Source: Antedon mediterranea (lineage: Eukaryota; Animalia; Echinodermata). Taken from it: 64,000 bases of DNA. Every line of letters begins with the position of its first letter. Position 1 is the stretch's first letter. Positions 9,601 through 44,887 of this stretch are shown one piece after another. A model generated the notes under the pieces. It did no database searches. It was not told the origin of the DNA and was given only the letters and a program-made list of their open reading frames with translations. The DNA lies in assembly GCF_964355755.1 (NCBI RefSeq), contig NC_092670.1, positions 2,656,201 to 2,720,200 on the forward strand, in the 5' to 3' direction. The position numbers and the translations under genes are program-made.

Positions 9601-12600
9601 TTCATTACAATTTATATTTAGTAGTCCCACGGACTTCATCTTAGCCACTCCCCCGAGTGCTAAGGCCAAATTTATGATACCCTACTTTCTATGTAAGTTT
9701 AGTTACAGTTAGTTCTTGACGATAATACAACGAATTTAGGTTACACCCTTCGGCCGCGAAAACGTTTCTGTACAAATATGATACCGATTGGCTTTATTTC
9801 ATTCAACAGCGACCATAATCTCGCCAATTACAGGATAGATAAACTATTTTATTATTGATGTGCTTATAAATTAAGACTCATGTAAACAGCTTGATTACAT
9901 CATTTTACAGACAAACGAAACTTTTTTAAACCTACTGTTTCAATAACTGAGTATAATACTGTATACGTTTTCATAAGTAAGTGCATATACATTTTCGTGT
10001 TTTCATTGACGAGATTGTAATAGTAACTTCAGTAACTATTACAGTACTTATTTATTATACGACACAAGACAATTGTATCTGACAGGTACGTACATTATTC
10101 TAAAAAATAAGTCTAGATAGATCCCTTAGGCGTCATAAATCACAGGCCAACAAATCAGTACTCATGACAGAAATTCGACCCAGTTTGGTTCACACAAATG
10201 TTTACAGGAAGTTCAACACCACAACCGATGATTTGCCCTAAATATTTAGGTAGACTACAGTTTAATTTTTCACTGAATAGGAGCTTGAATTTCCGATTTC
10301 CATTTCGCAGAATGTCTAGGTCTATTTATTTAGTTTGGTTCTTATAATATATAAATACAATCAACTTTATTACTGCGGTTCCATCATCACCACCACGTGC
10401 CGCCCAATTCCCGTACATACATTTCCATTTCTCCCTAATTTCTTTAATCCACATAAATTAATGGTCCTTTATGGAATCCAGTATTGGTTTTGTTGTCTCT
10501 ATTTCTGAATACCCCAATTAGGGGGACACTTCCGTTTTTGTTTAGTGTCCCAAAAAAGTCCCCGTCCGTGGATTCTACTGTATTCGAGAACCATCTGTGA
10601 GCACCCCTAGATGGTACGCGAGCGAAGCGAGCGTGCCATCTAGTAGATATAATTTTAGTTACAAACACAAAAAAACTATGATATTAAATGAATCTCAATT
10701 TTGTAGCAAGTTTTTTGTTTCAAATTATTTAACAATAATTTTTATTTTTAAATGATTTACAGTATGGATAAAACTTAGTGTTAACCATTAATGCAATCAA
10801 TGCTAAGAAAAATGTACTGTGCTTGAGAAAGTTTGCTAAAAACATATTATTTATCCATGTCTAGATTTACATTTTTTTTGTTTAAAGTATTGTAGTGGTA
10901 CTGTTGGTAGTCTCTTGATGCTAGCAGAGTATTAAGAGTTTATTAACAATATGTTTAAAATGAGCTATGTGTAAGAAATAAAGGCAACATACCCAAGCTT
11001 GAACTTCTTGATTTTTCAAGCTCCCCTAAAAAAAGAATAAAAATACAAATCTCAGTTAAAATTACGGTACTTAGAAAATAAGTACGGTTTAGGAAGGCAT
11101 TTAAACAAAAATACAGATTCAGCCAGTCTAATTTGTGCTGGAAAAGCATTCCAGAACACGGGGCTTATATACTATAGTTACAATAGTCCATTCTGTCATT
11201 AACACTAAGGTTAGATGGACATGTTTATTACAGTTACCATACTGTATTATTGCTTTTTATATAATAATAATTGATTATTCTGTCTGATAATATTTTTCAA
11301 CATAATATGTAGGAACAATGACAGCAAATGCACAATGTGCCTTCAGTGGTTGCCAAATTTAGGGCATGTTACTTAAAACTTGGATGTAACCACTGTTTAG
11401 TTGATGAAAGAAAGTTAGTGCCTGTCATTGCCTTGTAAAACTTGTATTCAAAGAACACAACAATACCTCCAATAAGGTTATCTCCATTGAAGCTACTATT
11501 TCCAGGTACTTCGCTCGGTAGGATTGCAGATTTATTTTGAACTGTAAAAAATTAATTAGAAAAGGAAAATTAAAAATTTACACATAGGAACCGTAGACTT
11601 GCTTGGATCAACTCATACAGTTTTTTTAAAAAGTAAAGACAGACTATTTACAAAGATGCACTACTGTTGAAATATTGCATAAAAGCAATATAACAAGAGT
11701 ACCAACAATTGTTGATGAAAATTACCACAATCATCATGCACCGCAAAATGAAAACTACAGCAATTTGATCAAATCCATTATGTTTTGGTTGTTTTCTGAA
11801 TGAATGAATGATTTCTAAAAGTTTCTACAACCAGTATTTGTTCACTGTTGTGAATAGTTTGAGCCAAATTAATGTAGTAAATTAGATGGCAGTGAGCGAG
11901 AGTAAGTGGATAATGTGATGGCACTTTTATGAAAAGTGTCTTTTCAATTCTTCCAATTCTAAGTTATGTAATGTATAATAAAATACCTTTTAGTACTTGC
12001 ATAGGTCCTTTAAGTTCCATGCGGTTTAAGTTTTTAATAAATGGTTGCATATTTCCTTCACAGATTATGTTTCTCATCTCAAGGTCCATAATCAAATGCC
12101 ACTGATCATCATAAACCTGTTCTGCATCATTATAAAAGTCATTCATTTTCCGTATATCTTTCTCAGTCAGCTCTTCTCCAAATTGTATCAACATTAGTCT
12201 GTGAGGAGTGAATTTCAAAATTGGAATTTTTCTAACATTTTGGTTTGTTCCAATTTCTTTGTAAATTTTACTTGCCAATCCAAATTGTTCTGTTGCTTTT
12301 ATGGTTTCATAAAACAAAGTTAAGTCATGGCTTGTTAAATGTTCTCTCTCCATTAAGAAGTTTAGCAGCTGATTTGTGTTAGATGCTTTATCTAACTGAC
12401 CATTTGACAAGAGATCTTTATACAGAATTTTCAGCTTATTGAGTAAATGACGACGATCATACCACTGTGAAAATTTTAGTTTAATGATTTTAAAGTTAAC
12501 TTGCTCTGGAGTTTCTACAAAAATAAGAACAGAAACATTTAAAAAACAGAAATATTATGGAAAATAAACTATTTTTGGTATGTTTACAATACCAAATTAC

Positions 12601-15600
12601 AATAAATTAAATTGTCAATGCCTAAACAATATTGAAAATGACACCAATCCTTTTGAACAGAACATACTTTCTTGAGGACTATCTTCCCGGATTGATTGTC
12701 TACCTGTAAAGAAAGTAGATTGGTACAGTAGTTACAATATCAGTTTGATAAAAGAAATACAAGTTTTATATTATTCATTGCCTTATTAAAGTAGATATTG
12801 TTGATATTGAATACAAAACATACTTTCTAGAGGACCTGGTGGGCTAACGTCTTGTTTACCTGTAAATAAATGGTTTAATATTATAGTTGAAATGTCAGTA
12901 GTGTTATATCAGTAGTAGCAGGTACATGTATTTGCTGTAACTACATTTATTTATACACAGTTGTAGGATGCAGTAAAAGTATTTCTGCATTATGGTAGTG
13001 GATTACTGACTGATTACTTTTTTAATTTTTTATAATTGGACTACTGTACAAGGAATCATAGATAGAAACAAATTGTACAATTGTAAAATGAATTCATTGA
13101 ACCAGGGTCATCATCTCTAAATCACATGTGCCTCAATTGCCAAAATTTCAGTTCATAATTCGCATTAGTTAACACTGTTTAAATATGTGACACGTCCACC
13201 TCAATTTTTGGTTGTGAAAATATTTTAGTGTTTTCATCAAGCAATTAATAAATATCTGACAAGGCTGAAAGTTGCTGTCCAAGCTACTGCAAGTTTCCAA
13301 TCCATATTGTAGCCTTCAGTATAGGCTATCCTAAACTGGAAAATCATCATCAAATGCTTTCTGGTAAAATTGTGAGATTTTGACCCATCATTATGATTGT
13401 TGGACAGGTCTCCATGAGACTATACTTTTTTCTGAGTAAATATTGCATAATATCTATAAACAAGTAAAGTTTGCATATCTCAACTCTATTGACTCAACTC
13501 AACTCAATCCAAGTTTTTTTGGATGGGGAAAGGGGGGCTACTTGACAATGCAATAAAATAAGAAAAATGTTTTTACCTTGTTTTTATTGAAGGATATTCA
13601 AACTTTATTTAAATTTTCATTAAACCAATTGAGGTACATTCAATTTTTAGCAAAATCAGAGATGATGGTGACCCTGGACATTTCTGTTAAATTGGTTGCT
13701 TTGTCATGGAATGACATAATATAGAACCACAGTTGTTTTTAATCTCATTGAATCCCATACAACACATGTAACATACCCAAGCCTGAACTTCTTGATTGTT
13801 GAAGATCCCCTGCAAAAAAAAACTTTTATCTTTGAATTTCATACACAAATTGAACATTACTACTGCCAATTACTGAAGGTGTTATTGTTGAAAACACATT
13901 TTTAATAATATTTAGGGTGTGTGATCATACCAAACTTAATTGTTGTTGTTTTCAACAGTAGTTTTTAAGCTTCAAAGAATTGCTATCCACTCAGACACTT
14001 CAACTAAGAGCTTATTAGTAAAGATATCAGGGTCTTTGTAGTTAGTTTCCAATATTTTTTAGAAGTTCAAATAATGCAAGAAAGAATAATGAAAGAAAGA
14101 AATGACAACTATTGTACTTTTAGAGATCAAGATGGAGAGTAACTTTTATTCATGAAGCATTCTGGGAACTAAGAATTATGAAGTCATACAAATATTTTAG
14201 ATACAGATATGTGATAACACGTATATATATACCCTAATAATTTACTTTATTATTGCTGTTATCACTTTTAGTTTAATACAGTACTTACATACAAATGGTA
14301 ACTCATGTCTTTCATTTGGTTTTTGTAGTGTTAGTATCTTTGTACTAAATTCTTGTTTCTTTTTTTTCTTGTTCTTTCTTGTTACAATAAACATACTCCA
14401 ACTTTCAACTTTCCATATTTCATTAGCAGTTATAGTCTGTAAAACAATTTACATCTTGTTTAGATAATTACTCATGGTATAGAACGTTGGTACAATATGC
14501 TACTAATTTTTCCACTTAATGTGTACTGATTAAGATATTTTATAGTTAATTGGCTATTAAAATACATTTAGACAAACCAAAAATATGGATATTCCAGAAT
14601 ATTGCACACATTGTCTGTGACCAGCACACAATATGAATCTGCTTTATTTCTCTATCCACAATAATTTTTACTAAAAATTAAAAATAGCAAGTGTTTGCTT
14701 CACGTTTTTACTTGGGGTCATGTTGAATGCACAAAACGAGGTATTTTTCAGTGGTTACCTAACACATTTAATAGTGTGCTTGTTACTTGTTTGGATATTG
14801 ATTTATTTTATGATAGTTTAAATGTATTTAAGTCCGATCTTTGTTTATGTTGTTGTTGCATATTTGAATGTATTATTACCTCCGCCAAGGAGGTTATGTT
14901 TTCACCCCTGTATGTTTGTGTGTGTGTCTGTGAACAGCCTGGAGGCCACAGTTTTTATCCGATTCTCACCAAATTTATCAACAATGATCTATGCCTCAAA
15001 AGCTCGGACGAGTTCGAATTTGAGGGGAAAAGGTCATAGGTCACAACTAACAAAAAAACTATTTTACTGCCTAGAGATGACAGTTTTTATCCGATTCTCA
15101 CCAAACTTAGCCACAATGATCAATGACACATCATATAATTGTGGTTAAATTTTGAAGGGTCAGGGTCAAAGATCAAGGTCCACAAAAAACTAAAAAAAAA
15201 GAAATAAAAAAATAATAAAAAAAAAAACCTCAGTGGGAACTGAGAGGCTGGATACATAACCATTACCATTTCCTCACTGAGGACAAATATTAATACAAAA
15301 TACAAAAATTACACCACACTGTCATCCACAACTTTGTAGTGTGCAGTTAACATATTTACACTTAGAACTAATAAAAAAATATGTAAAAAAAAAATATTCA
15401 GGGGGCATTTTATGTAGGGGAATTTTACAGTAGGCGGAGGTTTGTACTCTCGGAGTACCCTCTAGTTATAGTTTATTATGTTTAGATTCAACCTGTTAGT
15501 GGCGGTTTCATCGCTGTTGGTTGTCAACTGAATAAAATAAAATAAAATAAATTTTAATTTCTGAAATTCAGTAAACAGCTTGCATACATCATAAATTTAA

Positions 15601-18600
15601 AATTTGACCCTGTAGAATTTTATTCAAATATTTTGATTGATGACGATGAATGGAATGTTCCAAAGGATCCTCAGGATATTCCGAAATAAATCATTGAATA
15701 AAACCAGTACTGTATGCAAAAACATTTTGGGGTTATAATGAACTATTTTAGAATCTGTGTACTTTGTAAAAAAAATGTTGCTCAACAGCTTTAACCAAGT
15801 ATTTGGGGTTTTCAGGGAATTTTTTAGTGTCGGAATTGATGAACGAAGATTCCTCGAACCGTTCGATTATGATAGCCTAAGATTAAACTCTAGGCCATAG
15901 GCTATAGGTATTTTTTTCACTGGTTAAGAGTATTTCCTCATTGGTACCTCCTCCTTCCTCTTCCTATTATTTTTATACTCTATAATTTATCCTAATAATT
16001 TAACATTTATTGAATTAATCAAATTGTTTCATTCATAGATTTTAATATTTTATTTATTAATCTATGACTTTGCACTTATTTGTATAATCATACCTGTGTT
16101 GGAGGCTTCACATCCCAATCTTCTTTGTTTTCTACTTCAATGTCCATATCAGTGTGCAACAAATCTATATATTTGGGAATTTGTATAGGTATTTCCCCAA
16201 ATAAGTGACTCTCTCTGAATACCTCCTGAAAGTAATGTATAGAAGGAAATCTAGATATAGTCCGGAAGACAAGTGAGACTTTAGTAGATGCAACCCTGGG
16301 GAGTTTGAAGGGTGGAAATCACTTTTCCAAGCTATAGAGACCATGCCAGGCTGCAGGCAGATTTCATCTACATCATCTAATTTTTTTGGATGCCACTTGC
16401 AGTATTTTTTTTTCAATTTGTGCCCTTCTGGAAGAAGAGAGAGCCTCTAACAATGCTGGCTATATGCTTTTATTGTAGGATAGTCAACTTACATTTAAAA
16501 GTAGATACATTTTTTTTAAAGTATAGTAGGTTTGACATTGATTTTCATGACTGAAGCAAATACTCTATTCATTGGGTGGTGACATATTATACAAATTTTC
16601 AATTTTATTACGTATTGAATTACAATCAAAATAATATACAGTGTGACTTTTACAATAAACAAACAATAAATTACCTTTTCTCTATCAGTGTCCCAAGTTC
16701 TTACTCGAAGTTGATACTTGTTAATCAATACCTTTCCAAACACACCTAACCTTGCTGTTTTTTTACAAGGACCTCTATTTGTTATTGTAGGCCTACCAGT
16801 AAGACCATATTTAGAAAAATGTTTTGAATGTACACAACACTGTCCATTGTTTAAAGAAAAGGTTATGTCATCATCTTCATTACTGTCCAGTTTTATTCTT
16901 CTCCATTCACCTTGACACGTTGTAACAAGTAAAGTGAATTCCCAACACTCTTCATCTACAGCATTATGTGGAAATGACAGCAAGCAGTGGTTTTTAAAGA
17001 CTGTGCCTGGTGGTCCACATCTAACAACAGGTGAAAGTATTGTTTCAAGAGGATCTGATAACAAATCACTAGGAAAAGAAGTGTTTTCTAGTGATACTTC
17101 AACATTCAATCCTTCTTCAATTGCTCCAGGATTTATCACCAACTTTGTGTCTTTATCCTTAAGATAGAGAGTTTCGCCTTTGGAGTCCACAATTAACTCC
17201 ACAATTTGGTCTGTGGAATCAAAATGCTTTATAAATTTAATATATGTTGTAATTATATGTGGTTTATTAATATTATAATAATAATAATATTAATAATAAT
17301 AATAATTGCCATGTATTTTTTTTGTGTGCTGTCTTCTGTTCTATGATTTAGATGTTAAAATCTCTTAAAGGTGAAGCTTTAAAATTACCACAGTACATTA
17401 CGGAATAACTGTTAAGCAAATACACAAACATGGTAATTACACTTTTGTTATATAATTATTTTTCTTTTTCCTCCTCACCTGGTATATAATTAAAAATGTT
17501 TGTGTTTAACTCATAGTATCTCTAAAATATTTTGGCATTGAAAAGTCCATATTAATATGCTCTCTAAAAGAATAGCTTACAATACCTGGCTCTGATGCAA
17601 AAAATGTAAACGGTTTTTGTTGTTTTTCAGTTGATTTATAGGAAGAACCTATTAAAAAATAAAATAAGAACTATAATCACTAAACAAATTTTATTATCCT
17701 TAATACTACATTTTGGAAAGCTGTCCATAAAGGTCCTTCTTCTAATTTCAGTTTCATAAATTATCAATTTGATATGTTTGTAAAACTAAAATAAGGAGTA
17801 TGCACATATCAAAATTGGGATAGTTTCTCATAATATTTTTTAAAAGATGCTTTCACCTTCATTTTTAACAAATCAACAAAAAATATGTAAAACAATTATT
17901 AATTTTAAAAAACTTTAAAATAATTTTATTTCAATTATAGGAATCATGCGTTATTCTATAAGTAAGGTATACCTGCTAGTTGTATTTCATATCTTTTTTC
18001 AACAATATCTTTCTGAAACATATCAGCAAGATTGTTACTGCCATGTTGAATTAGTGCAATGCAAAATACTTCAAGTTGATTCCATTGGATATCAATATTG
18101 GTTCTCCAAAAATTCATCATTTCTTTGGTAGATGTAATTAGCTCACTTCCAAACTTTGTCACCGTTAATGAGCTAAGACCCAGATGAACACCAAACAATT
18201 TCCAGTTATGAATTTCTTCAGATACTTTTCTAATAATTTGATCATCCACGTACCCTATGATAGAAAAATTAGCTTTGACTTTGAATTATTGGCTATTCCT
18301 AAGTAAATTAACTTTTAAAATTTGCAATCCTTAGATTTTTAATGCCATAAAAAACCTACTAAATCTTACCTTCGTTATGAGATCGTGATGGTATAGCTAT
18401 AAAAATAAATAAATAGATATAAATTTGTCAATCAGTATACATCTTTATAATATTACTAAAAACAATCTCAAAAACTGTATTCCAAATTTTTTTTAAATTC
18501 AACACTATTGGACCATACCAAACTAAAACTACTTACTTTCATCTTGAGATTTTAAAGTTTCTGTAACAGTAAATATATGTAAATTAATCAATAATGCAGG

Positions 18601-21600
18601 GTGAATCCAGTAACGTAAAGGATACTGGTACTAGAGGGTGTAATGTGGTCTGATTCCTGTAAAAGTTGGCTTGTGAGAGATCGGTCACCATTGCATAGAA
18701 TGGAACACCAACTTTTCTGCGTAGAATAGACCTACTGTAGAACCGTTTTTTATTTGACTTGCAGGCCAGTTAGACAGCCTTTTTTTCCCCATTTCGAGTG
18801 GGGTTTGTCTGAAACAACTCAGATCCACCACTGATAATGTCAACACATTGTACTATGGGATACTGCAAAATATCAAAATATATGTGTATAACTTTAAATG
18901 CCTTGCCTTTTGGTAGCACAGCTTCCCCAAACAATTTACGGTAAAGTTTAACTTCCATTTGATTGCTTCCACAAGGCAACACATCCTGGTCAAACTTGCG
19001 AATAAGATGCATATGAGCATTTTGAATGTTTGGACTAGATGCACACGGGATGTACATCCTTACTTCAAGACCTCGGGCATCCTTCTGACTGAATACTTTT
19101 AACTCTTTTTGAAGGAAATGAAGAACCTAAAAAAATCCATGTATATTACTGCAGTATGTAGAAATAACACATTAAAAAAATAAAATTTGTTATGCTAATT
19201 ATTTTGGCAATTTTTTTTAAAATTCTGAACAGAAGTACTTATCACTGTCATATATTTAACTTTATTTATAACAATCATACGAAAGCCCATTAATGCCATT
19301 TTAAGTATATGTTTTTCGAACGTAATCCGTTCTAACGAATTAGTAATTCGTTTGAACGGATTAATAATCTGTTCAAACGAATTAGTAATCCGTTCAAACG
19401 AATTGCAACATATACAACAAGTGCCATTTAAAGTATATGTTGTAATTCGTTTGAACGGATTACTAATCCGTTCAAACAAATTACTAATTTGTTCAAACGG
19501 ATTACTAATTCGTTCAAACGAATTACTAATTTGTTTAAACGGATTAGTAATCCGTTCTAACGAATTACTAATTCGTTTAACGAATTACTAATTCGTTTAA
19601 ACAAATTAATAATTTGTTTAAACGGATTACTAATCTGTTTGAACAAATTAGTAATTCGTTTGAACGAATTAGTAATCCGTTTAAACAAATTATTAATTTG
19701 TTTAAACAAATTACTAATCCGTTTAAACGGATTCCTAATTCGTTTTAACAGATTATTAATCTGTTTAAACAAATTAGTAATTCGTTTGAACAGATTAGTA
19801 ATCCGTTCAAACGAATTACAACATATTCTTTAAATGGCACTTGTTGTATATGTTGCAATTGGTTTGAACAGATTACTAATTCGTTTGAACAGATTACTAA
19901 TCCGTTCAAACGAATTACTAATTTGTTTAAACAGAGTATTAATCTGTTCAAACGAATTAGGAATCCGTCCAAACGGATTAGTAATTTGTTTAAACGGATT
20001 ACTAATCTGTTTAAACGAATTAGTAATCCGTTTAAACAAATTATTAATTTGTTTAAACAAATTAATAATTTGTTTAAACAGATTACTAATTCGTTCAAAC
20101 GGATTACTAATTCGTTCAAACGAATTACTAATTCGTTCAAACAGATTATTAATCCGTTTAAACAAATTATTAATTTGTTTAAACAAATTAGTAATCCGTT
20201 TAAACAAATTAGTAATCCGTTTAAACAAATTATTAATTTGTTTAAACAAATTACTAATTTGTTTAAACAGATTACTAATTCGTTCAAACGAATTACTAAT
20301 TCGTTAGAACGGATTACTAATCAGTTTAAACAAATTATTAATTCGTTTAAACAAATTAGTAATCCGTTTAAACAAATTAGTAATTCGTTTGAACGAATTA
20401 GTAACTCGTTTGAACAAATTAGTAATCCGTTTAAACAAATTAGTAATTCGTTTGAACGGATTAGTAATCCGTTTAAACGAATTACAACTTATACTTTAAA
20501 TGGCACTTGTTGTATATGTTGCAATTCGTTTGAACGGATTACTAATTCGTTTGAACAGATTATTAATCCGTTCAAACGAATTACTAATTCGTTAGAACGG
20601 ATTACTAATCAGTTTAAACAAATTATTAATTCGTTTAAACAAATTAGTAATCCGTTTAAACAAATTAGTAATTCGTTTGAACGAATTAGTAACTCGTTTG
20701 AACAAATTAGTAATCCGTTTAAACAAATTAGTAATTCGTTTGAACGGATTAGTAATCCGTTTAAACGAATTACAACTTATACTTTAAATGGCACTTGTTG
20801 TATATGTTGCAATTCGTTTGAACGGATTACTAATTCGTTTGAACAGATTATTAATCCGTTCAAACGAATTACTAATTCGTTAGAACGGATTACGTTCGAA
20901 AAACATATACTTAAAATGGCATTAATGGGCTTTCGTACAATCATAATAATTTTCCTTTACTGTGAGTATGTACCCTAAGAGTCCCTTTGTGTTGTGCCAA
21001 ACGGCACTCGTTTGTCTGTCCACAATGACAGTGTCTGACTTGTACACCAGGGTGGGGTAACCCCCTACTCTTCTGAAAGATGAACAGGGTTATTTATATT
21101 ACTTGGATCTCCAGTTATAAGTCCTTATCCACAAAGACTTGTTCTCCCACCAGCACTATAGTTGAGGAGTGCATTGAATTTGTTGATTTTATGGCTGTGG
21201 TTTAATTGTTCCTGTATTATCACTTTCATATCTACTAGCCTACCTTCTTACAGACTTCAGGTAGTGGCTTAATGTCGTCTTCTAGAGAACTATCAGCCTT
21301 GATGCTCTTTGTTCTGACTATTGTTGTCTGCAATATAAAATAATGAACCTTGTAGTTTGACACATTGTAAATGGTAGTCTGTCTTGTATTTTTTTTAATG
21401 GATTGATGCTTGTTATTTCATTTGTCGGAGGTAAATAAATTTAACAGATTATAGCAATCCATACAACAGACATGGTCTTGATATATTATATTGTACAGAT
21501 ATATTTAAAATGTTTATGGGGTGAACATAGCCAAGGCAAACCTTTCATTTTTGTTTTTAATGTAGAAAATATGTGATTAAAATTGTTTTAATGAAAGTTA

Positions 21601-24600: not shown

Positions 24601-27600
24601 TCGGGTGTAGCTAGGCCTCCTTTGCAATAAGCCTGCCTACTTAGGCATTGCATTCACCTTACCTTGCGAAGAATAATATACAGATAATTACTAATTAATG
24701 TTCCTTGGCAATAATATATTCATTAGGCCTAGGTCGTTTAAATTAACAGAAGAATTTCCATCAATAAGCCTACGTACATTAATAATAATAATATTATTAT
24801 AAGGTAGGCAGAATAAATTATAATTTGTGTTATTCGAGGAGCCGAATCACCGGATGTTCAGCGCTCCGCGCGTACCAGGTTACTACCGTGAGTATTAACC
24901 AATCACAAACGGTCTTTCATAACATCCAGGGAGGACTAATAACAAATGAGGGCGTTTAAATAGTTTAGTTGATTAATTTCTTCAAGCAAGTTGCTTGGCG
25001 CAACGGAAAAAACGTTGTCTTTTGATGATGTGACTAATCATCGTGAGTTCAAGTCCCAATATGATGACTTTTGTTTATTTATCGCCAAACGTGAGTGTTG
25101 CCACAAGAAAATTACACAGTCAATATCATGGTACTCGAGAATTTGCTGGATTTTATATGTTTAAAGACAGAGACACAATATTTATGCGAAAATTACTCAG
25201 TCAATGCTCGAGGATATATACGATTTATGATCCTCGCAGCAACGTATTTACATAGGCTATGTAATATAAAAAAATATCTTTATTATCAATGAAATTTAAA
25301 TGTTGAATTGTTAATGTAGCTTTTTTGTTTCAGTAGTTTTAATTTTTAGATTTAAGAATGTTGCGTCTATACTACTACTAAATTTATTACAGATTTGTGA
25401 TAGAGATATTTGACCAATATACTAATCAAAAATTATTACTTATTATTTTTTTAGTGTTGGCCTTTCCTAACTTTGTTTGTCTTATATTAGAGGAGGAAGA
25501 CCTGTGCAGGTAGAGCTAACCTGTTTCACACAGAAATATGTGTTGGGAATATATGTGGAATAAACTAACTCCATGCTGGTATCACTTTCTGTCAGAATGG
25601 GTCATGCAGGCATTGGGTAGAATATTCAATATATACCAAATGAAAGTTGGTATATACCATACTTAATATTCCTTTCCTGGCTGATTGATAGCTATATGCT
25701 GGTAACAATGCCGGCATCAATTCCAGCATTTTGTCTCCACTTTATGTAATAAAATGTAACCACTTTACCCGCTGCATCACATGATAAATGGGTTGTCCTC
25801 CAAAATCTGAGATGTTCATCACAAACTTGTCGCTTGTCGTCTTGTCATCATTTCCTTCTTTCTGAAACTCAATTTCTATTAATTCTTCAATTTTTGAAGG
25901 AATCTTTGTCTGGTCATCACTTTCTTCTTTCTCAATCTTTGTCTTGTCATCATTTCCTTCTTTCTGAAACTCAATTTCTATTAATTCTTCAATTTTTGAA
26001 GGAATCTTTGTCTGGTCATCACTTTCTTCTTTTTCAATCTCTATCTTTGAGGGAATCTTTGTCTGAAGGTTTTCTTGCTCTATATTTAAAAATGTTAAAA
26101 AATTGTACTAAATTCATTAAAATAAATTCATTAATTGACAAATAAAGTATCCAATATTATGTTTCTGTATGTAATATATTATTTGAAGGTTTGCATGGCA
26201 AAATCAAATGTTGTTATAAAGTTTGCAGTACACCATGTATATTTAGTTATGAAAGAACGGTTGGGTTTCTCTACATTTCGATCAGTATACTTTGAGTGAC
26301 ATTCTCACTTCTGAGGACGATAAAAGTATATTGATCGAAACATTGAGAAACCCAACAGTTCTTTTCAGAACTATATATATGTGGTGTACTGCAAACTTTC
26401 TGTATGTAATTTTTATAGGCCTTTTATTATGATAATTTATTATAGGATTCTAATTATTTTATCAATGGTAATTAAAATTAATTAAGAAAAGTACATTGTC
26501 ATTGTGATAGTGACTTTTCAATTGCCATATATCTTGAAAGAAAACCTTGTCAATTAGTAAGAGGAGAATTTGGCACATGCCTCTTAAGATTTTCCTATTT
26601 CATTGAGTTTGTTTTGAGAATAATAACAAATATAGTCTCTGGTTAAAACATGGGCAGAGGTGCCTTGAAAATAGTAGGTCTAGTTATTTCGAGACACAGA
26701 GGCCATCAAACAAAGAATTGAAAGAGGCAAAGTATATTTGTTTTGAATTTTCAACCACCTCTTTAACCACCTCTTCCATCTTAAATCGAATATCAAAGCC
26801 CAGGTCACAAGTCAGCCCATGTAAAATTCAGTGCTTAGTTTTGGTAGAGCAGAACAGTGAAATATTAGGTGTGAAATGTAATAATAATACGCCCTGCACT
26901 TGAAATTCCTATTAACATTTTTTATTACCCTCATCCATTTTGCTTTCTTCTATTTTAGTTGATTGTGCTGGATTTTCTTTTGACTGTTCTTCTATTTTGT
27001 TTTCTTCCACATATTTCGTGGGAGCATTTTCATTGCCAGAAGCCTGTTTTGCTGATGCTGTTGCACCTTCTTCTTGTATCATACTATTCTTGTTATCAGA
27101 AGCATTTTCTGTTGATGCTGCTGTTGTATTTTGTTTTCCTTTCACTTGTTTCACCATTTCTCTGGCAACTGCTTTCTCATACATTTCAGAAACTTTAGCA
27201 TAAAAGAAGTGTAATTTACTTTTGTATATTATTGTCATGCTTGTATATATACACAGTATTATTTTAAGAATGTTACTATCTTTTTTAAATAGGATAAGAA
27301 TGGAACAAGTCTGGGACAAGGTCTTTGCACTCAAACACAGGATTGGCTAGCATGAATAGCTAAAGCAAAAACAAAAACAACCAATCCTGTGCCTCTCTTT
27401 CTTTGGTGCTAATTTGGTTACTAATTTTGTATTTTGCATTTTTTTTTTATTCTCATGTTACTTACAAGTTTCTGGTGATTGTTCTTTCAAAATTGTTTCA
27501 TTATTACCTTGAGTGTACACTGTTCTTGTTTCTGCTATACCATCAGTTACTTCATGTTTTGGATTAAAACTACAGAAAAATTAATAAACTAAATAATGGC

Positions 27601-30600
27601 CATACAGTATTTTTTGTTTTATTGTTTTATTATCATTGTCTGCCTATATTTTAACGATTAAATGTAGTGCCCCAATGCAACCAATTGGTTGCAATGGCAT
27701 TTATGTTGTTATATTGTGTATAAGGTATGTTTTTCCGTCATTAGTAAATTCCCTTAAATCCGTTTTAATAAAAATGGCTAAACTGAGAGGAAATTATGTT
27801 TAAATGCATATTGAATCTAAAATTTACACAGATATATACCCCGGGATTGAAGATAGAGTTTCAATTCAAAACAATCTCATTATACTTTTCATCTCATTTT
27901 CTGTAGATTGTTTTAAACAACATTCAAATCAAATAAAAAATAACATTTATTTCCAAAATAGTGGCATCACCAATAAAGCAAATGCTTGTGTCAGGGCTGC
28001 CAATACAAAACAGACAAAAACAAACAAAATATATAAATATATAAATCACATTTAAATAAATAAATGTCAAGGTTTTCTTACCGTTTCCTTAGTAAAGAGT
28101 TAATAGTAGAAGTTTTTCCTACTCCCTCAAGACCTACAAAAATAACTCTGCCCTGTTTAACTTCAGTTTTTCCTTCTTTCAGAGCTTCATTAAATGCATT
28201 AACTGCTTCTGGTCCTCGAGCCCATATCTCCACAGGTAAGTCTATATACAAATTAATTAGTATAAAAATGAATATTTTATTTCGTTGAAGGGAGAGAATA
28301 ATTTCATATAATGACCGATTGACAGATTCATTAAATTCAAAGAAAATTAGGACAGTCAGGCTTTTCTCCTCATTTAATGAATGAATACTTAATAATTAAT
28401 TATTTGTTTTATTTTATTGTTATAAAGTAAATTGTTACAGTATATGAACTTTAATTTTGTGATAATCATCAACATCAACTTCATCTACTGTAGGCCAATA
28501 TAAAAGGATACTACAGCTCACTATGTCGGTCGGTTTGTCGGTCGGTTGTCGGTCGGTCGGCAAACAATAACTTGAGCATGTGACTGCAGTCATCTATATG
28601 GCCTTGTTATATTTAACAACACATTTAGGATTGGACATTTAGTGTTTTTACAATGAAAATAATATTCTCCATTGAACAAATTAAAACAACAAACAAACTA
28701 TATAACTCAGATTATGGCTGCACTGAATAAATTATACATGTCATGCTCTGTATGTTTGTTTTTGGTGGTGCAAAATATGGCAAAAATATATATGTGTATA
28801 AATGCATTGTGTTCACTTTATTGAATTACTCTTTCCTTTTTGGTAATGAATGTAAATTAAGTGGGTCAAGAATAAAAAGTCAAAATCTAGTTCATTTTAG
28901 CTGTCAAATTGGAGTTAATTGTCCAAGCACAACACTCCTAGATCCACCACAGAGAATATTGAAATTTTTTATTGTATAACTTCGACCAAATGTTGTTTTA
29001 TTTGTTTAGTCTATGTGCATATGTTGGTCAAAATAAATGTTGAATTGAAATGAAATACATCCCTTGCTCATGCAACTGCTCCTCGGAACTGTGCTTGTCA
29101 ATATAATAATATTGTTATTACATTACATTGCCTGCTAGATTTAAATTTAGTATGTCAAGAATCAACAATCTGAAAATAATAAATATCACATAAATATAAT
29201 CACAATAACTTACTATCAATATTGCTTTGCCCTGGTAATTGTAATCCTCTTTTTGCATATTTTCCTTGTAATCCTCTTTTTGCATATTTTCCTTTCCTGT
29301 TAAACGATATGTTTCTCAATGAACACTGATTGGCAGCATGGTGGATGTCGTCATCTGATAGATTGCAATCCACCATGTTAAGCGTCATCAGCTTAGGAGA
29401 CATAATGAGTAATGAACTCAGTGAATTAACATCAAGGTTGTGAAGGTTACTATCAGAGATATCGAGATGATATAATTCTAATTGAACTTGTTTGAGAGAA
29501 CATTCTGAGACAAAGTCATGAAATACATCACGTGATAGATTCTGAATCCAAACACCGTCACATCTATCTTGAATGCCTAAAATGTGTGCAATAACTCTTC
29601 CCTTTCGCTCCAATGCCATCTTACTACAAAAGTCACTGATACCAAAACCATCATATTGCATACAATACAATTGCATAATTAGACGTATGAAATGCCCATC
29701 ACATTGTACACCTGGACTAATGTAATCAATAAACATTCTTATGGAGGTTAATATATCATCCAAATGATTATTTATTTCTAAATCTTTACTTGTCATGTAA
29801 TTAATTAATTCATTTATCACAGCATCTTTATGTTGTTTTTTAACAAAGTTTAAATCACTTGGCAGATAGCGATATGTTGACAAACGATTTGTAACCCAGT
29901 GCTTGAGGAAACCGCCAGCTTTATCACCAAGGAAACCAATTGCAAATTCTCTTGCTCTGTATAAATGCTCACTCTCTTGTATCACCTCCCACTCATCATC
30001 ATCCAATGGTGTAAGTAATGTTCGTACATCTGAACATTCATTCTCCATACCTTCACTTTCACATAATTTGCACAAGTAAAATCCCACCAATGACTCTACT
30101 ATCAACTTGTGAGGAGGCATAAAAATGTTATCAAATTTAGATTTTGAATTTGACACTTCTTCGTAAACAAACCCAAGTTTTAAGGCCATATCAACCATAG
30201 CTTTGTTCGAATGTTTAGTCAAATCCGTTTTGTTTATTGAAAGTTGGTTTACTTTTAAGCTATCATACATACATTTCCCTAATAAAATCATAGCATTTAC
30301 ATACTTCACTGGTATTTTTTCAAATTCAGAAATCTTTGTTATGTTTTCTCGTTTCTGATTGATTCTCGACTGATTCAAAATACTACGAAAGAATTCTTTG
30401 AAGAGGTCAGTTTTATCTTCGGGGAGACTTTGATTATCTTCCCACAATATACAAAGTGTAAGAAGTATCATCGGGTTTTTGCACATCGCATACGCTTCAG
30501 GATGTTTTAGCTCTCGCTCTCTTAAGCGACGCATTCCAATACGCTGCACCATCAACGTAGGCCTAACTGTTTCAAGATGCGCGTCAGTATCTAATTCCTT

Positions 30601-33600
30601 TCTAAGGGATTCTCCCAATTGTGGTTTTTCAAAATACTCAAAGTGTTTGTCGATATACTTTCCTATACTCTCATTGTTGAATCCCTTAACTCTTACATGT
30701 ACATTACATTCTTTCATGAATTCATTAATATTTTCTGATCTTGAAGTAAGAATTACAGTACTGTTTTTTAAGTAGATCTTTCTAAATAGTCCGAGTACGC
30801 TTGGATTATTAAATCTCAATTCTTCTAGTCCATCTAGTAATAACACCACTTTATCGTCATATTTGTTGATGAATTTTGAAATCAACCATGGATCTTCTTG
30901 GAGATCTGTCTCTAAATAGAAATCTACCATATCAATTTGCTTTACAATTAAATCAATGATGTCGTCATCTCTATGTAAATCCCGTACACTTAAAAGAAAT
31001 ACAATTTTACCTTCAAATGATTTAATTGATTGAGTAGCCGTAGCCCAGTTGTATGATAAATGCCTTAATATGGTAGTTTTACCTATCCCACCCTCTCCAT
31101 CTATAAGAGCTCTACATCCAGGTGTGGAGCTGATCACATCTACCACTTCTGTTAATGTTGTTGGTTTGCTTCCTTTATTCTTTTTAGCTTCTTTACGTAG
31201 TTCCATATCGGTAAACATCTGTGAAATGTCAACACTGTATCTACCACGCATTGTTGCTGGTGTAAATATACTGGCCTGACTGCACAGTTCCCTTTGTCTT
31301 TGAAGCAGATATTCTTCTATCTTTTCTAAATATAAAGATTTTTAGCTTGATTAAACTATATAAAGTTTTATTAATATATTATTACATTTATTTATTATGT
31401 GGTATTTCATAAAATTGTTGAATGTTTTGCATTCCTCTAATTATTTTTATGTTTTATTTTTGTATTAATTAAAATTACTACTTTATTGTTATAATGGTTT
31501 TTGTCACGCAATCATAATTAAGCTTCATATAGTGAGTGTGACCCAATATAATTTATGATTATGGTAATAATTTTCAGAATATGAAACTTTAATTTGAAAA
31601 ATATGCTCAACAGAGGGCAGCAAACAGAAAAATATAATTATCACAAAGGATTTTTATGACAATAGAAATTAAGTTGCACTTAGTTTTAAAGTAAAAAAAT
31701 AAAATAAACCTAAAACGTATGAGTGTGAAATTATTCTTATTAAAAACTTAAATATATAACATTAAGACATATTTTTATTTATCTTAGTTATAACACTCTC
31801 TTTATCCATATCAATGACGGTTTGGTGCACTGTATAGGCATACGAACCTAATTAGCCTATTGAAAGAATATTGAAAGAGCGGATATGTTTAGGCCTACTG
31901 TACTTGTAAAATTATCATTAAATCCAAAATCGGTTTATAAATTCTAGCATCTTATATAGTTAGTTTACTTCTTCAGTTTGTTTGATTTTTATTACTATCA
32001 TAATGATGCCATTTGTATTCAAACATATACTTCAGAGGTAAAAATTTAAACTTTAAGGTTTACTATAGACAATTATCATGGGCCCACTGATTTATTATTA
32101 TTATACAGTACGTGATATACAGTATGAATTAAAAGTGTTCAACGTGTTTGATATTATAAGTGATACACTGTACAGTCATACCTGTTTGACCCCAAGGGTA
32201 ATGAAATACATCCAATACTGATAAAATAGTTCAGAAACCTTATAATTGTGTACAAAGCAATTATTGTAGCAGCTTGATTGGCCGGCTTTGAAATTCAATG
32301 ATTATATTGTATAATTATTGTTGCAGTTGATTTATTTTTGACAATCAGTGAATTCAATAACTGAATTATAAAATGGATCTGATTTGCATTATTATAGTAA
32401 ACATTACAAGTAAACTCACCTGTTTCTGATTTAACCTCTTTGTTCATTGGTATCACTGGCTTTGAGTCTGTTTAATAAGCAAATGACAAGAACTGAATTT
32501 TTACAAGAAAACCAATGGATAATGGCATAAATTAAGTATGACAGTTAAGAAATATAATTCAGTAATGTGTGCAATATGAATGGTAGTTTGTGTGAATAGT
32601 ACATAATGAATAGTAAATCCTATTCATCTCCAAAAATTTATTTTAAAACTTGCTTGAAAAAGTAAATTTATTTTCTCTTACCTGCCATGTTGTCAACTTT
32701 TTCTGTTTTCGTTTCTAAAAAAACAAGAAATGTTGTATCAAATGATAAATCAATCAATAATACAGGATAAATCATGAATTTCAAAATATCTTTTTATAAC
32801 AAACAATCATATAAATAAATAAATCCGAAACTAAAGTGTTCCGGATGGCTCATTTAATTAATTGAAATATAAAATTAATTCAGAGAGGTTTGCAAAATGT
32901 CGACGTTGTATCTATGTCTCATTATTACTGATGTAAATTCACTGGCCTATCTGCATAATTCCTTTTGTCTTTGAAGCAGATATGCTTCTATCTTTTCTAA
33001 ATATAAAGAAAGATTTTTAGCTTCATTAAACTAATAGTATAAATATAAATTGAATTTAATTTCATTAATATATTATTACAAATTGTTATTCATTCTTTTT
33101 TTATTTATGTGGTATTGACTAAACTATATAAAGTTTTATTAATATATTATATTGTTTGAAGGTTTGCATGGCGAATTCAAATGTTGATATGAGTTTGCGG
33201 TATGCCACGTATGTTAGTTCTGAAAAGAAACCCAACAGTTTTTTCAGAACTAACATACGTGGTGTACCGGAAACTCATATCAACATATTAATATATTATT
33301 ACATTTATTTATGTGGTATTTCATAAAGTTGTTAAATGTTTTGTGTTCCTCTAATTATTTTTATGTTTTATTAATTTAAATTATCTAACTTTATTGTTAT
33401 AATGGTTTTGTCACGCAATCATAAATAAGCTTCATAGAGTGAGTGTGACCCAATATAATTTATAATATGTAATAATTTTCAGAATATGGAACTTTAAATA
33501 AAAAGATGCTCAACAGAGGGCAGCAAACAGAAAAATATCATTATCACAAGGATTTTTATGACAATAGAAGTTAAATAAAATCAACCTAAAACTTGTATGA

Positions 33601-36600: not shown

Positions 36601-37890
36601 AGTATGTATAACAAGCGTTTACATAGTTCATTATGTAAAATCAACATCTAAATGCATTCTTTTCTTTTTTTTTAAATAACCTATACTGCATGTTAATCTT
36701 CTTTTAAGTTCATACTGCGTATGTTTTATTTTAAAACAGTATCGTAATTTTCAAACCGTCCTATTTTTGTATATTTAGGAGGAATTGTGCGTAAATAAAT
36801 ATGAGTCTGAATTAAATAATAAACACTCTTAACTAATGTTATTTCTTTTGCGTAATTAAAATTAATGCGACATCGCGGATATTCAAATTATAATTTTTTA
36901 CTAGGAGATACTTGTTTGGAACTCACTGCTTCACCTGCATCTTGTTCATGTTCATTATTATCATTTAGAAATTCTTTCATTATTTTTATATGGTTAATAC
37001 CAGATGATTATTAAAATTATACTATATATTAAATAGACAGTAGAAATCTAAAAAGTAAAAGCCGACAAATTGAAAAGCCTAAGAAATTGTGACGGATTTT
37101 CATGTCGGTTTATATGTTTTCGATTAAAAACTAAAATAAACTTTTGTTACATACATTTTTTTTCATAAATAATTTCAATATAAAGAATACGGTATTTAAA
37201 AAGAATATCTAACCATGTTTAATGGAAGTGATCTCAACGTGTAACAGTTATTATATTTAATTTATTATATTGAATGAAGGTTTTTAGTCATTGAAAACGA
37301 AATCATCACTAAATCTATCTCATTAAAATAAATAGTAAAATGAAGGCAAAGAAATACATACCTGTACTAAGTAGGCCGAGTTCTTTCTGGGCTCGTTCTC
37401 CAAGAAGACGTGCAAACTCATTCAACTCTTTTGGTAAAAGTAGTTTCTTCTCCAATTCAAATATCACATCCCAGAGGCTTTTATTCGGCTTTAGTCTATA
37501 CACTGCTGAAACCCTCCGTACCGCAGCAGGAGATCCAGATTGTCTCACAGCCCGAAAGAGTCGTTCTCGTTCTGGTTTTAACTTATTTTCACCAGTACAT
37601 TTGATATTGTTATCTTCTATATACTGACGTACAAGATGTTCAGCATCTTTTGGGCCGGTTAATCTGGTAATCTCCAGCAAAAGGTTGACATCAGTTGGTG
37701 TAATAACACCACAGCCACCTTTGCTATCGAGCTTGTTGAATAAATCATGAGCCATATATGGTGCATCATTAAGGTCAGCTAGTTGCAGATGATCACCTAG
37801 GCAAAATCTTAACAATTTGTAGTCTTCGCCTTCATAATGCTTACCAAGTTTGGCTTTCAACACTCTAAACTTACTCTCAAGGTCTGACAT
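6230..37890 (-). CDS. Multi-exon gene for a ~2370 aa DED-NACHT-LRR-ROC-COR-Death-ZU5-UPA-DED fusion protein (3' end uncertain)
   Basis: Hand-built exon chain, open frame and matching phases at all junctions, AG acceptors, GT donors (one GC): 37890-37362, 32714-32682, 32467-32420, 31325-29214, 28241-28082, 27569-27466, 27192-26929, 26079-25769, 24313-24224, 23891-23715, 23521-23276, 22836-22648, 22254-22096, 22000-21725, 21327-21244, 19126-18907, 18560-18537, 18396-18370, 18254-17973, 17648-17586, 17210-16675, 16225-16094, 14436-14289, 13809-13777, 12859-12824, 12703-12668, 12514-11987, 11541-11467, 11025-10993, 6665-6594, 6310-6230. No transcript evidence. Confidence 0.75.
7272..10238. mobile_element. 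Possible Harbinger-type non-autonomous element containing the 830 bp tandem array
   Basis: TAA|GGGCAAAATTCGGT ... ACCGATGATTTGCCC|TAA; short imperfect TIRs only. Confidence 0.4.
7527..9490. repeat. Near-identical tandem duplication, 830 bp period, about 2.4 units
   Basis: Identical ORF translations at 8424 and 9254 (same peptide from 7615); an internal ~69 bp duplication is present in units 2 and 3 only. Confidence 0.9.
10580..10645 (+). repeat. Hairpin-CTAGT terminus of a Helitron/Helentron-like repeat
   Basis: CTAGATGGTACGCGAGCGAAGCGAGCGTGCCATCTAGT; related inverted copy at ~34506-34570. Confidence 0.5.
11987..12514 (-). CDS. C-terminal tandem DED-like exon
   Basis: FKIIKLKFSQWYDRRHLLNKLKILYKDLL...LLNFLMEREHLTSHDLTLFYETI and HRLMLIQFGEELTEKDIRKM...LIMDLEMRNII; 528 nt phase 1-1 exon, similar in size and layout to the N-terminal DED-like exon. 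Confidence 0.75.
14289..17210 (-). CDS. ZU5-UPA module (exons 17210-16675, 16225-16094, 14436-14289)
   Basis: VDSKGETLYL...LVINPGAI...LSPVVRCGPPGTVFKNHCLLSFPHNA is ZU5; HFS at 16821-16813; KKTARLGVFG...QLRVRTW then beta-rich UPA-like sequence. Confidence 0.88.
14873..15467 (+). mobile_element. Helentron-associated (HINE/DINE-like) non-autonomous element
   Basis: Subterminal inverted repeats ACCTCCGCC / GGCGGAGGT, GT-rich microsatellite after the 5' end, 3' hairpin GTACTC-TCG-GAGTAC followed by CTAGTT. Confidence 0.7.
17973..18254 (-). CDS. Death domain exon
   Basis: IIRKVSEEIHNWKLFGVHLGLS...KEMMNFWR...LEVFCIALIQHGSNNLAD follows the Death-domain pattern; symmetrical phase 1-1 exon of 282 nt. 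Confidence 0.85.
18907..23521 (-). CDS. End of ROC and COR domain exons (6 exons)
   Basis: LPIKWL, LLEYLHDIVEILYYPDDEALRDIIVID, LMEKFGLM, FYVLSRL and YLPDDLFQR match COR-domain motifs of ROCO proteins. Confidence 0.85.
19278..20937. mobile_element. Foldback-like non-autonomous DNA transposon built from 21 bp repeats
   Basis: TIRs start TACGAAAGCCCATTAATGCCATTTTAAGTATATG and extend ~280 bp; 6 bp duplication CAATCA (19272-19277, 20938-20943); interior is a 21 bp minisatellite in both orientations. Confidence 0.88.
20985..21140 (-). mobile_element. Possible Deu/Nin-domain SINE fragment
   Basis: Minus strand has GGATAAGGACTTATAAC...AACCCTG...TTCAGAAGAGTAGGGGG, recalled as similar to the conserved central domain of these SINEs; not searched. 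Confidence 0.4.
23715..28241 (-). CDS. ROC GTPase domain exons (6 exons)
   Basis: Pre-ROC LPVEIWARGPEAVNAFNEALKEG, G1 RVIFVGLEGVGKTS, G2 VTDGI, G3 ISDFGGQPIYH, FILSWIRSI, G4 PPVLLIGTHLN. Largely missed by the ORF track because the exons are short. Confidence 0.88.
24357..25275 (+). mobile_element. Dispersed ~920 bp repeat with a terminal hairpin (copy 2, intronic)
   Basis: Shares blocks such as gactgcttagaggttaaatataagattt and cgaggagccgaatcaccggatgttcagcgc with the reverse complement of 3950-4907. Confidence 0.75.
26183..26399. repeat. Palindromic Penelope pLTR-like repeat with a degenerate hammerhead core
   Basis: Inverted arms aaagtttgcagtacacca...gggtttctc / gagaaaccc...tggtgtactgcaaacttt; CTGAGGAcGAT...ATCGAAAC at 26311-26341; internally deleted relative at ~33154-33285. 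Confidence 0.6.
29214..31325 (-). CDS. Large exon: NACHT NTPase, helical/winged-helix region and about 2 LRRs
   Basis: Walker A GEGGIGKT (31098-31075), Walker B VVLLLDGLEE, sensor-1 ILTSR, CKNPMIL, winged-helix FMPPHKLIVESLVGFYL, LRR-like LYHLDISDSNL and LMTLNMVDCNL. Donor GTAAGT at 29213. Confidence 0.92.
32880..32996 (-). pseudogene. Dead duplicate of the 5' end of the NACHT exon
   Basis: EKIEAYLLQRQKELCR*ASEFTSVIMRHRYNVDI versus EKIEEYLLQRQRELCSQASIFTPATMRGRYSVDI at 31325; the flanking intron (~33000-34030) is also homologous to ~31330-32140. Confidence 0.85.
37362..37890 (-). CDS. First coding exon: tandem death-effector-like (DED-like) domains
   Basis: MSDLESKFRVLKAKLGKHYEGEDYKLLRFCLGDHL...DLFNKLDSKG...ITPTDVNLLLEITRL resembles the DED pattern; second weaker copy ...SLWDVIFELEKK. 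Acceptor ttttgcag before 37910 implies an upstream non-coding exon; donor GTATGT at 37361. Alternative ATG at 37902. Confidence 0.7.
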
Positions 37891-39404
37891 TTTTCGAAAC
37901 ATGCGTTTGTCTGCAAAAACAAATTTTAACATGACGAATATAATCAGGAATATGTTTTATGTTGTATTTTTTATTTTTGCGCTACTTATGTCTGTCTAAT
38001 TGTATGTTACCGTCATGAGCTGGCTACAGCATGTTAGAATTCTATTAGAAGGGGTTCGAACTAATTAATCTGCCAGTAAAGCATTTTTTAGAATTTCATA
38101 TATTTTTAGAAGATCTGTTTTCAGAGCTACAGTCTAAACTGCTCTTTTTATATATAGCTTTAACACACCTCCTAAAATGCCCCTTTTTCACACATTTTGC
38201 AATGATTAACACACATTAGAATGTTACAAATACAGTACACTGTGCCGAGACCACTTAGGACTACATTGTGGTATTCCAATTTCAATGTTTTTGTTGAATA
38301 TTTTATTATTGTATCATCAACCTGTGTTCTTTCTTTAAGGTTTTTTTTTCAATAATAGAAGAATGTGATCAACTGTATCGACTCATTTGTATATAATATA
38401 TCTAAAAAAAAAAACATGTTCCGATCCTTCTTCCTGCTTATTTAGAGATTCAATCCATTCAATCACTATCAATGTTTGGGAATCTTATATTGGTCTATAT
38501 TGATTAATATTAATATAAGCTGAATGACGAATGACAGAACATCATGTCAACGTCATTTGCGTGAACAAGGCTACTGAAAGTAGCTGAAACGTAGCAAGTA
38601 TGTACTTGTCAACTGGTTTAACTAAAAGTTAACCTTTATTTATTTAAATATTCATTGAAACCAGATGAAATTTTTTGAGAATAAGCTGAATTGTTTAAAT
38701 AATCCGCTAATTGATTCTGTATGATCCGTTCCAGAATTCTAGAAACATGAACAATTACAAAATTGTCTATAGTTATTTAAAATAATCACCAAGTCGGATA
38801 CTGTACATCAGTATCAATAATTGTAAATGAAAATGTTTTCTTGGATCATTCCAAGAAAGAAAGAAGTAAATGAAATGTATACATTCTGGATTATTCTTGC
38901 TTGAATTTGAATCTAGTTTTCTAATGGAAAACGTCTGCCCTTACCAAAGCAGAATGCTTAAATAGCCTTCGCTAACCATTCGCTAGGCATTCGAATGCTA
39001 ATTTACAGGTAATTTTTAGAATTTAGGCATTCATGGTTAAAACCACTTAAATGGAATGCTAAGAAAAGTTTCCAAGCATTCTTTAGGAATGCTTACAAGA
39101 GTCAATAAGCATTCAGAAGCTATCCCGAATGGCTGGTAGTGTCAATGCTAAAGATCATTGCAAGCATTCGGTGGAGATATTCTGAATGGTAGTGTGAATG
39201 CTAAGAACATTGGTAGCATTCAGGAGATATTTTGAATGGTAGTGTGAATGCTAAGATCATTGGTAGCATTCAGGAACAGATGTTGAATGGTAAACAGGGA
39301 AATAAGTGAATGCTCAACCAATCAGATCAATCCTCACATACTTCCAAAAAACAAGGGTGTCACGAAAGCTCAGACCACGAAAGCTCAGACCCCCTAAGGA
39401 CCTA

Positions 39405-44875: not shown

Positions 44876-44887
44876 AAAGGGGACTAG

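Follow-up and report, generated by a model that had tools for sequence, protein, structure and literature searches.

The window analysed here is a stretch of 64,000 nucleotides of contig NC_092670.1 from the crinoid (feather star) Antedon mediterranea, in which the feature under study occupies positions 10993..37362. A coordinate-based exon model, read from the minus strand from 37910 to 6230, contains 31 exons and ~2,376 codons with zero in-frame stops; all of its acceptors are AG, and all of its donors are GT except for one GC at 18907. The exons are given below in the order of the chain, together with a decayed copy and an alternative ending, and with the evidence for each.

37362..37910 (-): DED1, an N-terminal tandem-DED-like exon with a phase-1 donor (Pfam DED E = 0.0016, below cut-off)
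32850..32996 (-): degenerate copy of the NACHT exon's 5' end, carrying a phase-1 acceptor (translation)
32714-32682 and 32467-32420 (-): two 1-1 linker micro-exons (exon model)
29214..31325 (-): NACHT exon, comprising helical domains, roughly one LRR unit, a C-terminal cap and a tail (Pfam NACHT E = 8e-19)
18907..28241 (-): 12-exon ROC-COR block bounded by phase 1 on either side, with its GC donor at 18907 (exon model)
18370..18560 (-): two 1-1 linker micro-exons of 24 and 27 nt (model and RefSeq joins)
17973..18254 (-): Death-domain exon, 1-1 (Pfam Death E = 0.014, below cut-off)
17586..17648 (-): 1-1 linker micro-exon (model, blind scan and RefSeq joins)
17456..17478 (-): alternative terminal exon of 7 codons with a phase-1 acceptor (RefSeq model of the locus)
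14289..17210 (-): ZU5-UPA block of 3 exons, 1...1 (Pfam ZU5 E = 4e-16, above cut-off)
13809-13777, 12859-12824 and 12703-12668 (-): three 1-1 linker micro-exons (model and RefSeq joins)
11987..12514 (-): DED2, a C-terminal tandem-DED-like exon, 1-1 (Pfam DED E = 1.7e-6, below cut-off)
10993..11541 (-): a pair of 1-1 micro-exons, of which the second copies 13809-13777 (model)
6230..6665 (-): two more 1-1 micro-exons, outside the feature (model and RefSeq joins)

The DED1 exon is probably the first coding exon. Behind it, the decayed NACHT copy runs into a stop after 15 codons, and self-alignment matches 31224-31398 of the NACHT exon to 32895-33076. The Pfam match of the NACHT exon itself lies above the cut-off, with an intact Walker A motif and an altered Walker B motif (LDGLEE); the 61 Walker B motifs in the relatives comprise 53 LDGLDE, 7 LDGYDE and 1 LDGLEE, and the D-to-E change is rare, not unique. 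Pfam finds no LRR in this exon, in which residues ~575-677, or roughly one unit, match the LRR units of relatives. A reading of the exon as a truncated LRR array was dropped, as this cap is also where the nearest NLRs terminate. Immediately beyond the NACHT stop, an LRR-like peptide remnant in another frame (29169-29122) sits behind a fair acceptor that is open in phase 2 only; it could be what is left of an LRR in the ancestral NLR.

From 27192 on, the ROC-COR block is identical to XP_071951443.1 (P0027), in which COR-A scores E = 1.7e-10, above the Pfam cut-off; Roc scores E = 3.4e-10 in P0055, a 97% paralog in which both Roc and COR-A exceed the cut-off. The G1 and G3 motifs of ROC are present and intact, and the order of ROC followed by COR qualifies the locus as a ROCO with predicted GTPase activity. 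One COR motif carries V in place of the common G, and among 21 matches only the locus's own RefSeq model shares it. The Death exon is 40-53% identical to the Death domains of paralogs.

The joins of the ZU5-UPA block are the same as in the paralog P0103; a UPA exon candidate at 16446-16165 was dropped in favour of 16225-16094, which P0103 matches. Among solved structures, UNC5B comes closest to the ZU5 sequence, and the ZU5-UPA of P0103 gives an Atlas structure match to UNC5 ZU5-UPA with a TM of 0.8. In the UNC5B alignment an HFS motif, found also in P0103, falls at the self-cleavage position of ZU5: its F aligns with residue 137 of chain 3g5b, which by the Cys663/Cys670 register of PMC3210808 corresponds to Leu677, the stated UNC5B counterpart of the CARD8 cleavage-site residue Phe296 (PMC3210808). 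PIDD is cut at HF/S (PMC3210808), and a ZU5-UPA followed by a death fold and bearing this PIDD-type HF/S is a putative autoproteolytic module. DED2 matches the tandem DED of c-FLIP weakly (E = 0.011), and its single-sequence fold has a pLDDT of 41. The micro-exons at 6230..6665 are Arg/Ser-rich duplicates of one another, and the true last exon of the gene was not found in the window.

Upstream of the gene, at 42576-51092, lies an LTR retrotransposon with 619-bp LTRs that are 99.4% alike and with ORFs that match, in the order typical of Ty3/gypsy, zinc knuckle, reverse transcriptase, RNase H and integrase; it is a recent insertion, which may separate the gene from its 5' exons. Other repeats include an 840-bp inverted pair (39403-40234 and 41244-42058, 91%), a dispersed repeat with an internal palindrome in two copies (4022-4910 and 24353-25240, 79%), a near-perfect 830-bp tandem triplication (7525-9532), a 21-bp minisatellite of ~1.6 kb within the last COR intron (19322-20893), and broken reverse-transcriptase-like reading frames at 427-1642, which we take to be a non-LTR-type element.

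Intron phases and support for the splice joins

The sequence-only reading had placed a phase-1 intron at every module boundary, and this stands: on the predicted splice sites and RefSeq joins, from which all phases derive, 17 of 17 between-module introns are in phase 1 (15 inside the feature's coordinates), and the exons for DED, NACHT, ROC-COR, Death, ZU5-UPA and the linkers were all found where they had been placed on the minus strand, with the phases claimed for them. The DED1 exon ends in phase 1; the NACHT, Death and DED2 exons are 1-1; the 12 exons of ROC-COR have 1...1 ends with internal introns of phases 2, 1 and 1 followed by eight of phase 0; the 3 exons of ZU5-UPA run 1...1 with internal phases 0 and 0; and the linker micro-exons are 1-1 throughout, namely all 10 within the feature and 2 outside (6665-6594 and 6310-6230). 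Within modules (ROC-COR and ZU5-UPA; n = 13), 10 introns are in phase 0, 2 in phase 1 and 1 in phase 2, and a Fisher test of phase 1 between versus within modules gives p = 1.4e-6. Because chained symmetric micro-exons inherit their phase, it is fairer to count each of the 6 linkers as one unit, whereupon p = 0.001. With an assumed background share of 0.3-0.4 for phase-1 introns, six linkers all in phase 1 have a p of 0.0007-0.004. Chance does not account for the phase pattern, which is genuine but follows a rule that is already known.

Support for the exons was sought by a blind scan for exons of 15-120 nt, using matrices trained on larger exons only and ignoring phase. Among 179 candidates, micro-exons of the model occupy ranks 1-4 (32714-32682 being rank 1) and all 12 lie in the top 59, so that the micro-exons were not chosen merely to fit phase; several high-ranking candidates outside the model carry stops in every frame. 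Each of the 19 non-micro exons is open in a single phase only; for 8 of the 12 micro-exons, two or more phases are open.

Joins were compared by ungapped matching, with at least 5/7 residues on each side, with RefSeq models of the locus and its paralogs, which are gene predictions. Some of these models have several isoforms, which would usually point to transcript support. In this comparison 28 of 30 joins recur, and the joins DED1|m1 and m1|m2 (those of the first two micro-exons behind DED1) are absent from every RefSeq model tested. Micro-exon 32467-32420 joins NACHT as in P0083 and others, the NACHT-tail-to-ROC join is also used by P0054/P0055, and the GC-donor join at the 3' border of ROC-COR (18907) is present in three RefSeq models. 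The nine joins from ZU5 on, as well as the in-frame linker-to-ZU5 join, which P0103 shares, rest on that single model, whose tail itself runs through an intron. P0055 ends inside the ZU5 exon, read in another frame, and thus uses the same linker-ZU5 join. The NACHT donor at 29214 scores just 3.6 bits and is outscored by at least 10 GT sites within its own exon. The four read runs compared with 21050-38300, out of five listed, all cover introns, and no splice joints stand among the joints listed (15 of 270), a result that is uninformative on expression.

Exons 27192-17586 match XP_071951443.1 at 801 of 803 aligned residues, with both mismatches sitting where the two models diverge. This RefSeq model of the locus (808 aa) spans 27192-17456 only: it begins at a Met within ROC and stops short of ZU5, as the alternative exon 17456..17478 terminates the protein ahead of it (the last 6 residues map to 17476-17459, and an AATAAA follows at 17268). 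No RefSeq protein covers the whole predicted chain. The close paralogs are XP_071954574/5 (P0054/P0055), 97% identical in ROC-COR, and XP_071952298, 93-100% identical by module; the paralog models P0055, P0083 and P0103 are fragmentary or frameshifted. P0056 combines a NACHT piece (370-484), 19 unrelated residues and a ROC-COR that is 69% identical, and the window has phase-1 GT sites at the place matching its NACHT junction; P0056 could represent another fusion event or else an error of gene prediction.

Isoforms that skip whole modules, which the symmetric phases had also been said to permit, did not appear in any of the 7 RefSeq isoform pairs compared: three pairs carry linker-sized inserts (67, 21 and 5 residues), one differs in its start, one has an alternative last exon, and two have no gap of at least 3. 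A stretch inside a COR intron (21072-20941) serves as an alternative last exon in the paralog isoform P0054.

Proposed assembly of the predicted chain and competing readings

Modular shuffling, as the sequence-only reading had proposed, finds support in discordant domain trees, shared exon borders and varied ROC-COR flanks. Among relatives with >30 residues of flank (isoforms included), local alignments begin no more than 4 residues from the start of the NACHT exon in 52 of 55 cases and from that of ROC in 12 of 12, and they reach the COR end within 5 residues in 30 of 30. In relatives ROC-COR is preceded by Ank, Ank-Death, Death, DED, TAZ-KIX or NACHT pieces and followed by Death (one to three), Death-DED, DED or Death-ZU5-UPA-DED, and in the COR tree the first module after COR changes 4 times. 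DED, Death and ROC-COR are, at the protein level, reused in different architectures with the same borders; for ZU5-UPA, just one relative was found, too few to establish reuse.

Per-domain phylogenies of DED (53 modules, with 4 isoform or duplicate proteins omitted) and NACHT (37 rows) are discordant (AU p <= 3e-5). NLR-borne and ROCO-borne DEDs are mixed in the DED tree, with 8 changes of which at least 6 are forced by starred branches; the N-terminal DED of the ROCO P0049 and the DED of the NLR P0068 are identical at 149 of 168 residues. DED1 of the window is sister to the DED of the Antedon NLR P0017 (support 100/99), whose NACHT is distant from that of the window, and the window NACHT groups with P0066, P0068, P0070 and P0072 (support 99), which carry DEDs belonging to two further clades. 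Concordance would require three groupings, all of which are rejected by AU tests (p = 1e-10, 3e-5 and 4e-6) on 18- and 17-row subsets under LG+G4, a simpler model, with groups named after the trees had been seen and with long branches flagged in the test data. The discordance would hold insofar as the unconfirmed DED1 join and the joins of the RefSeq models are correct.

A ready-made 1-1 module is not supported for NACHT, since the 3' donor of its exon lies beyond the stop of the nearest NLR proteins. The closest relatives of the exon (79-83%) are plain DED-NACHT-LRR proteins ending at the cap, and 8 of the 13 NLR C-termini listed end within 10 residues of the cap motif, which is residue ~674 of the 703-residue exon. 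The tail beyond it consists of ~30 read-through codons up to a phase-1 GT donor (the unspliced frame stops at 29200) and is seen in none of the 13 listed C-termini. Between the window and P0055 the tails differ by 13 codons in length with the frame kept in both; the difference includes an in-frame duplication of 27 bp at 29239-29294. Neither search for relatives of the NACHT exon yielded a protein identical to it, and none of the 26 long or 37 mid-length relatives carries ROC-COR. The donor is probably not an old module border, because the nearest NLRs stop ~30 codons earlier; moreover, its phase would be set by the ROC acceptor, so that the NACHT border lends no separate support to a module made beforehand. 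The NLR-ROCO fusion is likely to have arisen by stop loss and a newly recruited donor.

We lean, with some reserve, towards reading the locus as one young chimeric immune gene of two-process origin, in which a predicted DED-NACHT-LRR receptor is spliced to ROC-COR-Death-ZU5-UPA-DED to yield a sensor-scaffold product. The first process would be class 1-1 shuffling in tandem NLR/ROCO arrays via recombination within introns, where the phase-1 ends of DED, Death and ROC-COR and the padding of 1-1 micro-exons would allow in-frame moves between genes. The second would be the NLR-to-ROCO join: the NLR would have lost its stop codon and spliced from a GT ~30 codons further on, with phase 1 being imposed by the ROC acceptor. 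Expressed as a full chain, the product may act as a cytosolic sensor-scaffold with NACHT and ROC-COR as nucleotide switches, in which ZU5 would cut itself at HF/S like PIDD1 and NLRP1 and free a UPA-DED fragment that may recruit DED-bearing adaptors or caspases (caspase-8-like partners). Recruitment by a freed fragment is known from NLRP1 and PIDD1 and is used here as an analogy. Shorter products would come from alternative last exons, not from domain skipping.

A broader version, which we entertain tentatively and with more doubt than belief, takes the crinoid NLR/ROCO arrays as one phase-1 kit that repeatedly yields working hybrids, with a full-length self-cleaving receptor at this locus and P0056 as an independent fusion. 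Were it true, two nucleotide switches and a ZU5-freed UPA-DED effector would make up a convergent NLRP1/PIDD1-like sensor.

It is rather unlikely that the chimeric gene is instead two or three adjoining units, i.e., a plain short NLR that stops at 29200, a ROCO-Death gene that extends to 17456 and, perhaps, one for ZU5-UPA-DED, with fusion RNA rare or absent, in which case the phase-1 borders would still be real relics of shuffling. The RefSeq model confined to 27192-17456, nearest NLRs that are complete at the same length, the weak NACHT donor and the AATAAA signals after the short terminal exon and after the NACHT stop (five between this stop and ROC) speak for such units. However, the ROC start exon has no Met ahead of its P-loop and therefore needs an upstream exon, for which no alternative coding exon or start codon was found; the ZU5 exon likewise has no start codon near its 5' end; and P0054/P0055 share the NACHT-tail-to-ROC join, as P0103/P0055 do the linker-to-ZU5 join.

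Still less probable is transient birth-and-death debris, in which a recent fusion, copied at least 3 times and perhaps transcribed, would be decaying and unselected, its frame being intact through youth. Paralogs of 93-100% identity that are modelled as broken or partial, the substitutions in Walker B (a rare one) and COR, and the decayed NACHT copy and several repeats in introns would fit this account, but ~2,376 codons and 30 introns show no stop or lost splice dinucleotide, the motifs HFS, Walker A and, in ROC, G1 and G3 have all been preserved, and the read-through tail keeps its frame across indels. That splice sites were merely picked so as to yield phase 1 is barely credible and already largely refuted: although for 8 of 12 micro-exons more than a single phase is open, one border has a GC donor and another a weak one, the blind-scan ranks, the single open phase of 19 of 19 larger exons and the independent RefSeq modelling of 28 of 30 joins stand against it.

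Related receptors and biological meaning

Class 1-1 modules are reportedly a concept of Patthy. A bias of Death and DED exons towards 1-1 has already been published for lancelets (PMC4284660): in Branchiostoma belcheri, Death exons number 151 of phase 1-1 versus 14 of 0-0 (PMC4284660, Supplementary Table 25) and DED exons 11 of 1-1 versus 0 of 0-0, both domains being among the shuffled exons, whereas Ras-family exons are biased to 0-0 (Huang et al. 2014, PMC4284660), which resembles the ROC-COR interior of the Antedon locus. The lancelet study (PMC4284660) concerns single exons in a chordate, while the Antedon locus has multi-exon blocks (the 12-exon ROC-COR and the 3-exon ZU5-UPA) with phase-1 ends, and one border here seems newly made by read-through. 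What is new is the predicted architecture DED-NACHT-LRR-ROC-COR-Death-ZU5-UPA-DED in a crinoid, including its PIDD-type HF/S, together with its partly traceable assembly.

The predicted front half DED-NACHT-LRR resembles invertebrate NLRs (Yuen et al., PMC3879445) and crinoid RefSeq proteins; as in the NLRs of that study, the N-terminal domain departs from the NACHT phylogeny, and NACHT and the LRR-like unit share one exon, as NACHT and LRR do in some sponge NLRs (PMC3879445). These relatives end after the LRRs, whereas the predicted Antedon chain runs on into a GTPase and three more modules. In the Anneissia NLR models P0098 and P0099, an OTU protease domain stands between DED and NACHT and EGF repeats stand before NACHT, as further inserted modules. 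With NLRP1, CARD8 and PIDD1 (PMC3210808) the predicted chain shares a ZU5-UPA that lies behind NACHT-LRR and precedes a death fold, with HF/S at the cleavage position; unlike them, it has ROC-COR-Death between LRR and ZU5 and a tandem DED as effector. This likeness is likely to be convergent.

DAPK1 and MFHAS1 belong with the ROCO comparison group. The kinase-less invertebrate ROCOs with Death, DED or TIR likewise have ROC-COR flanked by varied immune domains, and the portions of PMC5094078 and PMC9334734 that were available describe none with an N-terminal NACHT. Crinoid ROCO paralogs have Ank, Death, DED or TAZ-KIX before ROC-COR and Death (1-3) or DED after it. P0030 (XP_071945975.1) is an Antedon ROCO with CBP/p300-type TAZ and KIX domains before ROC-COR-DED, which would be a captured host-gene piece or a mis-join. 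The brown-algal ROCOs (PMC11378527) are immune candidates likewise diversified by symmetric exons and splicing; there, phase-2 LRR exons lie in one repeat array, whereas phase-1 swaps of whole domains are proposed for the Antedon locus. A chain of NACHT and ROC-COR, or the gene structure of crinoid NLRs and ROCOs, was not found in the literature at the level of titles and abstract openings, with subscription journals outside the scope; the supplements of echinoderm genome papers may hold such architectures.

The locus offers a traceable case of how new intracellular receptors come about in invertebrates, which have no antibodies: a single genome allows the source of every module to be named, and one border seems fresh, made from formerly untranslated sequence. 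Moreover, NACHT and ROC-COR, two switch families that are usually alternatives, stand in one predicted chain. If this chain is expressed and cleaved, it would represent an independent NLRP1/PIDD1-like design in echinoderms and would permit a direct test of the role of kinase-less ROCOs in immunity.
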